DNA of 64,000 nt from Candidatus Harrisonbacteria bacterium (GTDB lineage Bacteria > Patescibacteriota > Minisyncoccia > UBA6257 > 02-FULL-45-10c): contig JACROC010000005.1 in NCBI GenBank assembly GCA_016214655.1, forward strand, positions 131,078 through 195,077, written 5' to 3'. Positions 39,166 through 62,982 of the stretch are shown here, piece after piece. The notes beneath the pieces were generated by a model that ran no database searches, was not told the origin of the DNA, and saw nothing but the letters and a program-made list of their open reading frames with translations. A program made the translations under genes and the position numbers. Within the stretch, counting starts at the first letter, position 1. Every line of letters begins with the position of its first letter.

Positions 39166-39877
39166 AAGAAATCATTTTTTTTACTTCTTCTTTTTTCAGA
39201 CTGGCGCCGCCGACAAGGGCGCCGTCCACCTCCTTATATTTTAAGTAGTCTCTTAGATTTCGGGAATCAACTGAACCGCCGTACAATATTTTAGGGTTTA
39301 GGGTATAGGGTTTAGCGTTCAGGATCTTTCTGATATATTTTATAGTTTCTAATGCTGATTCTGGGGTTTCGGGATTGCCAGTGCCGATTGCCCAAACAGG
39401 TTCATAAGCTACGATAAAAGGGTTTAGGGTATAGGGTCTAGGGTATAGAAAGAGGCCAATTTTTAATTGGCGCTCGATTACTGCTTCTTTTTTGCCAGCA
39501 TTTTTTTCTTCAATAGTTTCGCCAACGCAAAGAACCGGGATCAGTTTATTCTCGGCGGCGGCTTTCATTTTTTTAGCTACCATTTCATCTGTTTCATCAA
39601 ACTTATGCCGGCGCTCTGAATGGCCAATGATAACGTATTTCACCCTAACGCTTTTAAGTTCTTTTGCTGAAACTTCTCCGGTAAAAGCGCCTTTTTCTTC
39701 GTAAAAAAGATCTTGGGCTCCCAGCCGAGATTTTTTTAAAACTTTTCCTACTTCTTCCAAAAAAGGAAATGGCGGCGCCACTACGACATTTTTATAATCA
39801 CTGGCTTTTGCCAAAGAAAGCGCCTCTTTGAGAGTGGCTGGATTCATTTTCCAGTTTAAAATCAGCAGCTTTGTCAT
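39158..39877 (-). CDS. tpiA: Triosephosphate isomerase.
   Basis: VIIGHSERR and AYEPVWAIGTG signatures, plus YGGSV. Confidence 0.9.
   Translation of the reverse strand: MTKLLILNWKMNPATLKEALSLAKASDYKNVVVAPPFPFLEEVGKVLKKSRLGAQDLFYEEKGAFTGEVSAKELKSVRVKYVIIGHSERRHKFDETDEMVAKKMKAAAENKLIPVLCVGETIEEKNAGKKEAVIERQLKIGLFLYPRPYTLNPFIVAYEPVWAIGTGNPETPESALETIKYIRKILNAKPYTLNPKILYGGSVDSRNLRDYLKYKEVDGALVGGASLKKEEVKKMISYV
39291..39314. repeat. G-tract repeat copy 1 (TAGGGTTTAGGGTATAGGGTTTAG) inside tpiA. It contains the 18-nt core that encodes PYTLNP on the minus strand.
   Basis: The identical 18-mer also occurs at 39426-39443. Confidence 0.6.
39422..39451. repeat. G-tract repeat copy 2 (GGGTTTAGGGTATAGGGTCTAGGGTATAG) inside tpiA, a canonical G3-N4-G3-N4-G3-N4-G3 motif on the plus (template) strand.
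   Basis: Four GGG runs with 4-nt spacers. Shares AGGGTATAGGGT with the rpsD-rpoA intergenic repeat. Confidence 0.6.
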
Positions 39878-39926: not shown

Positions 39927-41001
39927 TTAATTTCGTAAAGAAAACCAAACCTCATTTAAAAGTCTCTCGCGTAACTCATAAGTGTTAGCATGAGACAAAG
40001 CGCCAAGATAAGATTGTAATGATTGTTCAAGTGTTATTTTAGTAATATATCCTAGGTTATATTCTTTGATGCGTTTCCGTATTTTTGTAAATATGCGATG
40101 TTTTGTCTTGATTCGTATCAACCGATACTTTGGAAATATCACATGGCCAAGAAAATCAATGCCTTGATGTAACTTACGAATTATGATTTTCTTTGGATGT
40201 AGCTCCAAAGCAAGTTTCGTCTCAAGAAACTCATTGATCTGCGGCAAAAATTTTTCTAAATAATCCTGATTTTTCGAAACAATAACAAAATCATCGGTAT
40301 AGCGAATATAGTATTTTACTTTTAACCTATGTTTCATAAACTGATCAAATTCGTTCATATAGATATTGGCGAAAAGCTGCGAAGTCAAATTCCCTATCGG
40401 AATACCTTGCGCGGCGATTCTACTCTCTCTCTCTCTCTCTCTCTCGGGCAAACGTCACGCTTTTATAACTTTCAATAATAGATTCCAGAAGCCAAATGGT
40501 GTCACTATCTTTGATACGCTTTTTGATGATGGAAAGCAGGGTTACGTGATCAACGCTGTCAAAAAACTTCCTAATATCGCATTTCAATATAAAGCAAGGA
40601 TTGGCGCCATTCTTACTGACCTTTCTCACTGCTCTTTCCAAAGCTTCCACGCCTCTATGAGTTCCGTAACCGATGCGACAGGAAAACGAGGTAGAAATAA
40701 AGGTCGATTCAAAAATCGGATTGATAATCGAGAAAATAGCATGGTGCAGAACACGATCCCGAACTACCGCTTTATGAATGTGCCGTTGTTTCGGATCCTG
40801 TATATAAAAACCGGTATATGGACCGTGTTGGTAAGTTTTATTTTTCAATTCTCGTTGAAGCTGAAAAATATTTTCCTCCAGATTCCATTCAAACCGAAGC
40901 GCATCAGATTTTTTCCGCTTATCGATTTTAAAAGCCTCCCAGGCTGAAAAAAGATTCTCCGATGAAATAATTTTTGTAAACAGATTTTTATAAATTTTCA
41001 T
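39927..41001 (-). CDS. DGR-type reverse transcriptase in two ORFs: 40420-41001 (RT motifs 1-3) and 39927-40451 (motifs 4-7). The break is a frameshift inside an (AG)11 tract. One extra AG unit, or two fewer, restores a single frame.
   Basis: YACRIGYGTH, LKCDIRKFFDSVDH, the GIPIGNLTSQ hallmark of DGR RTs, and YTDDFV (YxDD). The N-terminal ORF ends ...FARERERERE* and the second ORF begins (M)PERERERESRIAAQGIPIGNLTSQ. Confidence 0.85.
40423..40445. repeat. Perfect dinucleotide microsatellite (CT)11C on the plus strand, which is (AG)11 in the RT sense. It is the site of the RT frameshift.
   Basis: Read directly; this is the only long dinucleotide tract seen in the window. Confidence 0.9.
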
Positions 41002-41015
41002 AAATAATTACCACT

Positions 41016-41366
41016 ATGGATGACTTCGATATACCAATCTTTAAAAAATCATATGAGCTCTATAAGACCTTTTACGGATATCGGCTCATGGTCTCCAAAC
41101 AAGATCGCTATACCCTGTGGCAGCGCTGTGAAAATACTATTTTGGATCTCTTGGAAAACATCTTATTGGCCAGCCAATTATCCAAAGAAGCTAAATTGCC
41201 GGCATTGGAAAAATCCAGCCTGAAATTGAATCTCCTTCGGATTCTCCTCAGGCTTTCCAAAGAAACCAAGGCAATCGACAATAAAAAATATCTTTACTTG
41301 GAAGAAATAATAGATGAAATAGGCAGGATGCTCGGCGGCTGGATCAAATCCACCAAAGATCGCTAA
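41016..41366 (+). CDS. avd: Accessory variability determinant (Avd), a four-helix-bundle DGR component.
   Basis: C-terminal EEIIDEIGRMLGGWIKSTKDR closely parallels Bordetella phage bAvd (...AEVGRILGSWIARVNRK). Size is 116 aa. Confidence 0.8.
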   Translation: MDDFDIPIFKKSYELYKTFYGYRLMVSKQDRYTLWQRCENTILDLLENILLASQLSKEAKLPALEKSSLKLNLLRILLRLSKETKAIDNKKYLYLEEIIDEIGRMLGGWIKSTKDR

Positions 41367-41416
41367 ACAAAACGCTCTCCAATTATTGGAGAGCGTTTTT
41401 AGCGATGGGAGAAATG

Positions 41417-41535
41417 ACTTCCGAGAGGCACCGAGACCAATGTTGTTCCACCTGTTGTCATCCCAGTTGTTGTTGACGTTCAGGCCATTGCCGTCGAAGT
41501 TGCCCACATTGACGCGGTTGCCGTCCGACGTGACA
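41417..41535 (-). other. DGR template repeat (TR).
   Basis: 118-bp match to the 3' end of the target gene (41952-42070) with 22 mismatches, 21 of them at adenines of the TR sense strand. The TR sense translation is Asn-rich (NRVNVGNFDGNGLNVNNNWDDNRWNN). Confidence 0.85.
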
Positions 41536-41820
41536 AATTTGCTCGCCCCCGTCTTTGGCACTGAAAGTCGAGGTTTGCTGTCGCCTAAGGCGACTTATAT
41601 CCTCTTCTTTCTGAATTTTATTTAGGAGCACTCCGATGTTCATCGGAGACCTCCGCTAGAAGCAAGCAAGAAGTTCTGTTCTCCATCTTTATTCACACGC
41701 TATCGCACTCCGTAGAGATGCGACACTCTGGTGACGTCTCAAAGATGAGACATCTTGCGGGATTAAACCGTGGCCTAATCTACATTAGCAAGATATTTAT
41801 ATTGTAATAAATTTGTAGAA

Positions 41821-41860
41821 ATAAAAAAAGAAGCCCCCGGCGCAAAAATCGCGCCGGAGG
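41821..41860 (-). terminator. Rho-independent terminator downstream of the DGR target gene (CCGGCGC-GATTTTTG-GCGCCGG, then a T-run).
   Basis: Hairpin and U-tract on the minus strand. Confidence 0.5.
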
Positions 41861-41946
41861 CTCAAGAGTTCAAGAGAGACAATCCCTCCAGAACTCAAAC
41901 TTCATCCTTCGACTTCGCTCAAGATGACCCTGAGCTTGTCGAAGGG

Positions 41947-42774
41947 TCAGAACTTCCGAGAGGCACCGAGACCAAGGGAGCCCCCCCTGCCGTCATCCCA
42001 GCCGCGGAAGACGAACAGGCCATCGCCGTCGAAGAAGCCCACAACGACGCGGTAGCCGTCCGACGTGACATCCGTGGTTCGCGCATACCTCGTCGGGTTC
42101 AGATAGATGCCGTTTTTCCGGTAATAGAGAATGTCCTTGAGGACTTCCTCTACTGCGGTCGGCACCTCGTACCCTTGAGGCAGCATAGCCACTTGGTCCT
42201 GGTAGGTCTTAGACTCGGAGTTCGGAACGATCTCCAGAGGCATCAGATACCACCGGAACTTCGCGGTCAGCTTGGTTGCCCAGGTTTGCTGAGAATACCA
42301 CGAACTGGGCGCGTAGCTTGCGAACTTTGGCTGGCCGTTTTGCGGATGCAGCTCCTGCAAGTGGAGGATGGTGAGCGGTTTCCCGTTCACGTTCTCGAGC
42401 CCCAGAAACGCGAAGTGCGTTTCTTTGACTGTCTTGCCTTTGACGAGCGGGCAAGGGGCGTTGAGAACATCCTCTCCCCACGGGAACTCAGCCACTTCTC
42501 GGAGCTGCTTCTTGGTGAACTTCACGCTGTACAGCGCGGTCCACTCTTCCACTCCGAAGAAGTTCTTGCCCTGAATGGCGCGAACCACCTGGTGATTCGC
42601 CGAACCCGACGCTTTGCCGCGAAGCATGAACTCGGCTACGCGTTTCGCGTAATCCGGCTCAGCCCGCAAGCGAGCGAGGTGCTCGGTTGAGACTCCGTGA
42701 TCCTGGAGCGCTTTCAAGGTCGCTCCGACTTCTCCGTAACTGGCTTTCCAGAGACCGCCTGGGTTTGTGCTCAT
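41947..42774 (-). CDS. DGR target (variable) protein with a C-terminal variable region (...YRVVVGFFDGDGLFVFRGWDDGRGGSLGLGASRKF).
   Basis: The C-terminal 40 codons correspond to TR-encoded Asn positions. RBS AGGAGGTAA. The GC-rich 3' end (GGTCTCGGTGCCTCTCGGAAG) is IMH-like, and an 8-bp inverted repeat (41906-13 / 41938-45) abuts the stop. Confidence 0.8.
   Translation of the reverse strand: MSTNPGGLWKASYGEVGATLKALQDHGVSTEHLARLRAEPDYAKRVAEFMLRGKASGSANHQVVRAIQGKNFFGVEEWTALYSVKFTKKQLREVAEFPWGEDVLNAPCPLVKGKTVKETHFAFLGLENVNGKPLTILHLQELHPQNGQPKFASYAPSSWYSQQTWATKLTAKFRWYLMPLEIVPNSESKTYQDQVAMLPQGYEVPTAVEEVLKDILYYRKNGIYLNPTRYARTTDVTSDGYRVVVGFFDGDGLFVFRGWDDGRGGSLGLGASRKF
41952..42070 (-). other. DGR variable repeat (VR) at the 3' end of the target CDS.
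   Basis: See TR above. All but one difference map to TR adenines. Confidence 0.85.
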
Positions 42775-42854
42775 GACACTTACCTCCTTTGTTTTCCGTC
42801 TTTCTCTCTTTGTCTTTTGGAGACTTTAGAGAGTTTGCCCTGTCCGGGGCACGG

Positions 42855-42990
42855 CCTCATCTCGGTAATGAGACGAGTATTTTAAAAACCAATTTTTGAT
42901 TTCCAAAATACTCGTCTCATATGTTTCAGTTTCAAGGTACATCAATCCCGCACTTTGCGAGAATTAAAACAAAGATAGCATATTTAGTGC
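42855..42990 (-). promoter_or_regulatory. Promoter (TTGACA-N18-TATCTT) and structured 5' leader of the DGR target gene. Holds a 16-bp perfect inverted repeat (42868-83 / 42905-20) with an alternative 8-bp pairing.
   Basis: About 60 nt of the leader is shared with the upstream region of the gene at 55158-55759. Confidence 0.4.
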
Positions 42991-62896: not shown

Positions 62897-62968
62897 TTTA
62901 GTTAGGGGTTAGGGGTTAGGGGTTAGGGGTTAGAAATTTACTAAACCCTCAACCCTATACCCTCGACC
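62891..62968. repeat. Telomere-like G-tract repeat with an inverted copy. (TTAGGGG)x4 sits at 62891-62920, and the C-rich counterpart (AAACCCTCAACCCTATACCCTCGACCCTCA) at 62937-62968. G-quadruplex motifs occur on both strands and the two halves can form a long imperfect hairpin.
   Basis: Read directly. It lies between the rpsD stop and the rpoA ATG; the G-run starts 2 nt after the ATG on the plus strand. Confidence 0.7.
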
Positions 62969-62982
62969 CTCAATTTATTAAT

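Follow-up and report, generated by a model that had tools for sequence, protein, structure and literature searches.

The closest described counterparts of the locus reported here are two kinds of diversity-generating retroelement (DGR) and the contingency loci of pathogens. In the DGR of Bordetella phage BPP-1 (mtd-VR/avd/TR/brt), sequence passes adenine-specifically from a template repeat (TR) to a variable repeat (VR) at the C-terminus of a C-type-lectin-fold protein. The element includes the four-helix protein Avd and the reverse transcriptase (RT) bRT with its I/LGxxxSQ motif, and an inverted repeat lies past the VR. Among the DGRs of the candidate phyla radiation (CPR, Patescibacteria), the B3 architecture, TR-(avd)-RT, makes up 90% according to the survey of Wu et al. 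(2018, PMC5758913), which compiled 'putatively functional' elements. In contingency loci a dinucleotide repeat inside an open reading frame (ORF) sets the frame: mod, a methyltransferase gene of Mycoplasma mycoides (MmyCI), phase-varies through 12 in-ORF AG repeats (PMC3498834), and oipA of Helicobacter pylori through a CT repeat (PMC10564699). Here we analyze a 64,000-nt stretch of the Candidatus Harrisonbacteria contig JACROC010000005.1 (the window, on which all coordinates are based). It holds a DGR whose RT gene is split into two frames by a (GA)11 tract. Our reading is that the tract is probably a slipped-strand phase-variation switch that gates DGR mutagenesis, and that the copy in the window is in the OFF state.

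The element is a genuine DGR (Table 1). A repeat search of the window returned exactly the two copies that an earlier reading, made from the letters alone (the sequence-only reading), had named as TR and VR; they are 82% identical over 119 nt. Realigned by TR base on the minus (sense) strand, they differ at 22 positions, 21 of which are TR adenines, just as had been counted (9 A>T, 9 A>G and 3 A>C). With 31 A in the 119 nt of the TR, the probability of at least 21 of 22 mismatches falling on A is 8.9e-12, and 87 of the 88 non-A positions are unchanged. The TR had been described as rich in Asn codons that are recoded in the VR to Y/V/F/D/R/G/S. Indeed all 11 AAC/AAT codons have changed, and together with one ATT they now read Y,V,F,D,F,F,R,G,G,G,S,L; the 12 recoded codons allow about 3.5e13 possible protein variants. 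Adenine-specific retrohoming, the mechanism known from the DGR family, would account for this pattern, which at this locus is a footprint in sequence. The sole non-adenine difference is a T>G change (TR 41450, VR 41985) that turns TGG in the TR into GGG in the VR (W264G); either misincorporation at a base other than A, as a rare event, or a subsequent point mutation could have produced it.

The RT is closest to bRT. When its two parts are joined, the best match among solved structures is 8ub7 (E 1.5e-43, 152 bits). This 328-aa chain carries the deposited name 'Reverse transcriptase'; its sequence and the work of Handa et al. lead us to regard it as bRT, the DGR enzyme of the Bordetella phage. 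The C-terminal part of the window RT aligns with its residues ~180-311. The hallmark motifs IGNLTSQ and YTDDFV, cited earlier as evidence for an RT of DGR type, are both present in the ORF 39927-40451. A group II intron or retron RT lying beside a chance repeat might be suspected from the NCBIfam search, in which group_II_RT_mat is the top-scoring model, and from the label 'retron-type RT' that some sources attach to relatives. However, the 153.9 bits of that match are far under the cut-off of 300, the retron St85 model scores 61.6 bits against a cut-off of 235, and the best group II intron RT structure reaches 88 bits (E 4e-24) versus the 152 bits of bRT. In addition, the RT is adjoined by an Avd gene, an A-specific TR/VR pair (P 9e-12) and a C-type-lectin target. 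The probability of such an origin is practically nil; it is refuted by the checks that the sequence-only reading had itself proposed, the tabulation of mismatches by TR base and the placement of the RT among DGR, group II and retron enzymes.

The sequence-only reading had called the DGR complete. In this respect it has to be corrected: a frameshift in the (GA)11 tract splits the RT into two ORFs. Adding one GA unit, to (GA)12, would give an RT of 358 aa, and removing two, to (GA)9, one of 356 aa. No other dinucleotide repeat of at least 6 units exists in the 64-kb window, nor does any homopolymer of at least 9. The tract lies in a stretch of 18 aa that bRT lacks, located between motifs 3 and 4. 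A structural model of the repaired RT (pLDDT 84.1 overall) shows a disordered loop at residues 183-196, where pLDDT is < 50. The codons of the tract are minority codons, GAG making up 29% of Glu and AGA 21% of Arg codons. It is thus the DNA repeat, and not the peptide, that is kept. We also considered that the C-terminal half might be translated separately and rejected it: an in-frame ATG past the tract was found in 18 of 154 out-of-frame loci, and direct reading of the window found ATG, GTG and TTG all absent between the tract and the IGNLTSQ motif. Production of the C-terminal half as a separate polypeptide is thus unlikely.

Among full-length relatives of the RT, the best of which is 70% identical, (ER)n runs of varying length are frequent at the same loop. 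We therefore scanned DNA without regard to frame, using as a pattern (GA)5 followed after 8-38 nt by the back-translated PIGNLTSQ motif. The scans of public metagenome contigs and of species-representative genomes yielded at least 120 and at least 119 loci, respectively; all counts on relatives given below are among the matches listed in those scans. The same tract is found at the same RT loop in at least 239 loci, nearly all from Patescibacteria. The sampled set comprises about a hundred CPR species representatives and some 85 further metagenome loci. Seven of the contigs (L130, L131, L147, L151, L185, L189 and L192) are labelled Gammaproteobacteria, Bdellovibrionales or Actinomycetota; they are probably mis-binned CPR sequences and not occurrences outside the CPR.

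After removal of near-duplicates, 183 non-redundant loci could be classified by frame, with some translations checked by eye. The RT is in frame in 40 of them (22%), shifted one way in 78 and the other way in 65. The in-frame share is below the one third expected at random (binomial p=0.001), which suggests that the frame of the DNA is visible to selection. A database search with the N-terminal half of the window RT gave a matching picture at the protein level: 110 of the 117 listed matches examined are truncated (<280 aa), and 94 of the 117 have an (ER)n run at about residue 184.

The tract also differs in length between sequences that are otherwise the same. We found 15 groups of loci with 500-nt flanks at least 95% identical (nearly all 100%), and in six of these groups the tract length varies. 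Three pairs (L046/L165, L066/L189 and L192/L213) are identical over 3,660, 4,108 and 4,863 nt, respectively, except for one GA unit, and in the first pair this unit toggles the RT between in and out of frame. Another pair, L002 with an out-of-frame (AG)9 and L025 with an in-frame (AG)10, shares the same TR, and its VRs differ at 19 sites, 18 of which are TR adenines. Both RT phase and VR content have thus changed recently in that lineage. Across 1.44 Mb of related loci there is one other dinucleotide repeat of at least 7 units, compared with 221 RT tracts of at least 14 nt.

An assembly or sequencing error at the repeat, with the real gene intact, would be a trivial explanation of the split RT. 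Dinucleotide repeats are prone to PCR stutter. In the public scaffold of one related record (L063, positions 580-730), two RT sequences that represent different alleles or paralogues have been fused at their GA tracts, with an NN gap between them, so GA tracts can cause mis-scaffolding. Against this, the tract of 23 nt is far shorter than reads and assembly k-mers, and the same state recurs, in both shifted frames, at over 140 independent loci that come from numerous projects, platforms and assemblers; the 110 truncated proteins among the 117 listed N-half matches point the same way. We consider an artefact very improbable.

Slightly less improbable, and still poorly compatible with the data, is that the element is decaying, with the RT a pseudogene created by a chance frameshift and the VR a frozen relic. 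A full-length RT is not encoded in the assembled sequence, one TR/VR mismatch is not at an adenine, and inactivated DGR RTs beside intact TR/VR pairs are documented (PMC3521204). However, the frameshift is the sole lesion in the RT, and 87 of the 88 non-A positions of TR and VR still match. The two nearest relatives, with about 81% DNA identity, have the same flanks around (GA)10 and (GA)8, both OFF. In the comparison of the window with L240, the nearest relative, whose RT is split too, dN/dS is 0.17 for the N-terminal half and 0.11 for the out-of-frame C-terminal half (dS 0.64-0.95). The C-terminal half has thus been read in the correct frame through most of the divergence of the two lineages. 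Other relatives give no sign of decay either. Out-of-frame RTs repaired at the tract have a median profile score of 516 bits versus 451 bits for in-frame RTs, that is, they score as full-length enzymes, and the YxDD motif is kept in 126 of 130 out-of-frame and 37 of 37 in-frame RTs. For 189 of 195 tract-bearing RTs the nearest neighbour is also tract-bearing, and at 55% identity tract-bearing RTs fall into clusters of 149 and 32. The tract has thus persisted through deep divergence, being conserved in RT clades whose identity to one another has fallen below 55%.

The main rival to a DNA-level switch is that the DNA frame is irrelevant: through slippage of RNA polymerase or ribosomes at the GA repeat, every allele would yield some in-frame transcripts or translation products, and the tract would act as a rheostat keeping RT levels low. 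In favor of slippage, 78% of the loci, species representatives included, are out of frame, yet both RT halves are under purifying selection. Diversification of the VR is equal in the two states, with medians of 17 (OFF) and 16 (ON) A-mismatches. Several observations speak against it. The two shifted frames are nearly equally common; the presence of both, together with the 40 in-frame loci, excludes a single programmed ribosomal frameshift. The length changes between otherwise identical contigs occur in the DNA, and the deficit of in-frame alleles relative to one third indicates that selection sees the DNA frame. Slippage during transcription is, as far as we know, an established phenomenon on homopolymer runs but not on dinucleotide repeats. 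Taken together, slippage at the RNA level appears unlikely, though less so than decay or error.

Some observations weigh against a phase-variation switch, or limit how far it can be extended to the window. Of the short tracts (12-15 nt), most are out of frame (4 IN versus 19 OUT), which would fit expression without dependence on the DNA frame, as slippage supposes. As the scan required 5 or more uninterrupted GA units, ON alleles locked by decay of the repeat lie outside the count. Switching in the lineage of the window itself is deduced from relatives about 81% identical and more distant; exact-sequence look-ups of the window Avd, the triosephosphate isomerase and the protein P0123 retrieved no other contigs. 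Finally, promoter-like sites in the region are sensibly placed and are no more numerous than expected by chance.

As judged from the sequences of the relatives, the tract is hypermutable, sets ON and OFF frames and has been conserved over the long term; its gating function is what we infer. Under the switch that we favor, production of the RT would lead to copying of the TR transcript into cDNA with random nucleotides opposite template adenines, and the cDNA would replace the VR, recoding 12 codons on the surface of the C-type-lectin fold. The hypermutable (GA)n in the disordered loop before RT motif 4 would gate production of the RT. Slipped-strand mispairing would add or remove GA units, with one in three lengths (n = 9, 12, ...) giving the full-length enzyme. 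The present copy, at n = 11, would be OFF and its current VR allele locked. Rare ON cells with n=9 or n=12 would resume A-mutagenesis and diversification. The excess of OFF alleles could reflect a cost of continued mutagenesis, or the hitch-hiking of OFF alleles with successful VR variants. We lean, if only slightly, towards the wider proposition that (GA)n is a selected contingency switch ancestral to large Patescibacteria DGR clades, in which a small ON fraction rewrites the lectin-fold protein and the OFF majority locks successful variants; the GC content of target and TR and the CTTG array described below may be further cis requirements.

The tract shares with known contingency loci an in-ORF dinucleotide repeat that sets the frame, a gene that is otherwise intact, rarity of such repeats elsewhere in the genome and, here in relatives, length differences between otherwise identical sequences. 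It differs in what it would control: contingency loci switch surface proteins or methyltransferases (phasevarions), whereas here the polymerase of a targeted hypermutation system would be switched. Their hosts are host-adapted pathogens, in contrast to the environmental ultra-small bacteria considered here. The position is different as well, as the repeat lies mid-gene in a loop of the catalytic domain and not near the 5' end. If the reading is correct, one stochastic mutator gates another in a natural two-tier mutation system, the episodic activity of DGRs has a genetic explanation, and contingency-locus biology reaches beyond host-adapted pathogens to ultra-small bacteria of the environment. 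Such a frame switch in the RT, heritable and reversible, would be a concrete and testable control mechanism for DGR mutagenesis. A switch that is widespread and mostly OFF, as are about three quarters of the sampled loci, would surprise specialists. Most such elements will be missed or mislabelled by annotation pipelines and by DGR surveys in which an intact RT ORF is a requirement. The accessible text of Wu et al. (2018, PMC5758913) mentions neither a repeat-borne RT frameshift nor the GA tract, the GC-rich target and TR or the CTTG array, and our literature search, whose coverage was incomplete, found no description of a repeat-gated DGR RT.

Apart from the tract, the locus is a typical CPR DGR of the B3 group. 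The order is target-VR, TR, inverted avd and RT, which is the B3 form TR-(avd)-RT, and avd lies on the strand opposite to TR, RT and target. The inverted avd, with the same gene order and orientation, is common to 181 of 182 relatives. Gene order, orientation, host phylum, a target family without a Pfam domain and the spacings (VR-TR about 500 nt, TR-avd about 45-50 nt) agree with the B3 DGRs of the CPR as described in that survey (PMC5758913). With the BPP-1 DGR the locus has in common the adenine-specific transfer, the Avd four-helix protein, an RT homologous to bRT (8ub7) with the I/LGxxxSQ motif, the VR at the C-terminus of a protein with a predicted C-type-lectin fold and the inverted repeat past the VR. 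Unlike in BPP-1, avd is inverted, with its start codon 14 nt from that of the RT, and the RT, which is not in frame, has the 18-aa loop insertion encoded by (GA)n. Beyond the fold, the target and Mtd are not similar. Also unlike in BPP-1, the final 24 nt of TR and VR are the same, so that no difference between IMH and IMH* (initiation of mutagenic homing sites) is visible.

Table 1. Features of the DGR locus in the window
Feature	Coordinates	Strand	Description
RT C-terminal part	39927..40451	minus	motifs 4-7 and thumb; IGNLTSQ, YTDDFV; frame differs from N-terminal part
RT N-terminal part	40420..41001	minus	fingers, motifs 1-3; 193 aa; stops at TAG directly past the repeat
(GA)11G simple-sequence repeat	40423..40445	minus	frameshift site in RT; (GA)11 itself 40424-40445
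avd	41016..41366	plus	116 aa; divergent from RT
Hairpin between TR 3' end and avd stop codon	41369..41399		perfect, 15-nt arms; inverted repeat I11, 100% complementary
TR	41417..41535	minus	119 nt; 11 AAY codons in target frame
Promoter-like site upstream of TR	41615..41642	minus	TGAACA-16-TAAAAT, ~80 nt upstream of TR; consensus match only; candidate TR RNA start
Intrinsic-terminator-like hairpin	41831..41863	minus	15 pairs, 10 G-C, T-run; would end target transcript; terminator scan
Three CTTG motifs downstream of VR	41863..41923	minus	TCTTGAGC, TCTTGAAC, TCTTGAGC; weak copy of relatives' array
Inverted repeats from stop codon on	41906..41949	minus	TGACCCT/AGGGTCA; CCTTCGAC/GTCGAAGG; folding
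Target gene	41947..42774	minus	275 aa; helical N-terminal part and predicted C-terminal C-type-lectin fold with VR; GC content at third codon positions (GC3) 0.73
VR	41952..42070	minus	119 nt; spans final 40 codons of target gene
Inverted repeat between DedA-like gene and target	42868..42920		25-nt arms, 88% complementary, 3-nt loop; overlaps target promoter-like site
Promoter-like site upstream of target	42879-42906	minus	consensus scan

The Avd-like protein of 116 aa that the sequence-only reading had pointed out, encoded by the ORF 41016-41366, matches the Pfam bAvd profile (57.9 bits, 1.6e-15; cut-off 40) and phrog_3206, 'Avd protein of DGR' (8.1e-19). With NCBIfam DivGenRetAVD it scores 76.3 bits, slightly under the cut-off of 80. 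The start codons of RT and avd diverge and are 14 nt apart (41001-41016). Consequently, either each promoter lies inside the other gene or the RT is expressed by read-through from the TR promoter. Such read-through would cross the hairpin at 41369-41399 and run antisense to avd; transcriptional interference between avd and RT is possible. The promoter scan gave a further promoter-like site upstream of avd.

The VR lies at the 3' end of the target ORF, within the C-terminal domain for which a C-type-lectin fold is predicted, in line with what had been surmised earlier. An A-tolerant scan of the 64-kb window found no second VR. The target was compared with the C-type-lectin folds of Treponema TvpA (2y3c), Thermus TaqVP (5vf4), Mtd (1yu0) and the C-terminal domain of Legionella Lcl (8q4e), to which its identity is 6-15%. 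It has neither a signal peptide, whose absence had already been remarked, nor a membrane anchor, and its helical N-terminal part has no assigned relative.

The target gene forms a GC island. Its GC content is 57% and its GC3 is 0.73, whereas 13 host genes have a GC3 of 0.36-0.45 and the RT of the cassette one of 0.34-0.40. In 69 of 79 related loci the body of the target exceeds the RT by more than 5 GC points, and the reverse is seen in none. Over a host GC range of 0.30-0.67, the slope on host GC is 0.43 for the target and 0.31 for the TR, versus 0.83 for the RT; mean GC is 0.54 for the target and 0.56 for the TR, nearly independent of host GC. Depletion of A was rejected as the cause, the sense strand having 25% A and 18% T. 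A one-off horizontal transfer was likewise rejected, as the GC offset is systematic across relatives.

Downstream of the VR, related loci carry an array of CTTG motifs in tandem units of about 8 nt (NNNCTTGR), strand-specific and located between the target stop codon and the terminator. In the 150 nt past the VR of 97 related loci, CTTG is enriched 4.3-fold (271 seen, ~64 expected) and concentrated within the first 60 nt, and its complement CAAG is at 0.38-fold. The array may act in cis in homing, or proteins may bind to it. An inverted repeat begins at the target stop codon of the window, as the sequence-only reading had noted. The hairpin past the VR folds with -25.8 kcal/mol and z -4.9 over 60 nt, and with z -1.1 over 91 nt; it is not conserved among relatives, where the median z is -0.9 versus -0.79 in the control.

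The hairpin at 41369-41399 is the dominant stem in the RNA fold (z -3.9), and nearly all relatives have a hairpin of unrelated sequence at the same place. Stem-loops just downstream of the TR are reported in 207 of 278 DGRs and bind Avd (bioRxiv 10.1101/2023.10.23.563531). The hairpin may be a candidate Avd-binding stem-loop, a bidirectional terminator, or both. No conserved duplex between the sequences upstream and downstream of the TR ('cPRT stop'-like) emerged from 97 loci (median z -0.14), which leaves the 8-bp pairing of GCCAAAGA with UCUUUGGU in the window fold unsupported. The inverted repeat at 42868-42920 may serve to terminate transcription of the gene upstream, or as an operator.

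The element is chromosomal and belongs to the genome of a Candidatus Harrisonbacteria, an ultra-small groundwater bacterium, unlike the DGR of BPP-1, which resides in a phage. Its neighbors are housekeeping genes, for SecA, PBP2, triosephosphate isomerase and a DedA/VTT protein. Proteins of the window are identical to HZB99_02530, which corresponds to the N-terminal RT half, and to HZB99_02540 of a Candidatus Harrisonbacteria metagenome-assembled genome. NCBI annotates both the N-terminal RT half and the target as 'hypothetical protein'.

No tRNA genes and no Rfam families at the gathering threshold were found in the 64-kb window. A heptamer-like repeat, AGGGTWT, occurs there in arrays of 3-4 units at 39293-39332 and 39419-39458, both in the triosephosphate isomerase gene, and at 62945-62970, 23 kb away, making 6 matches versus 0.01 expected. 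The two arrays in the triosephosphate isomerase gene encode 'PYTLNP' in two loops of the protein.

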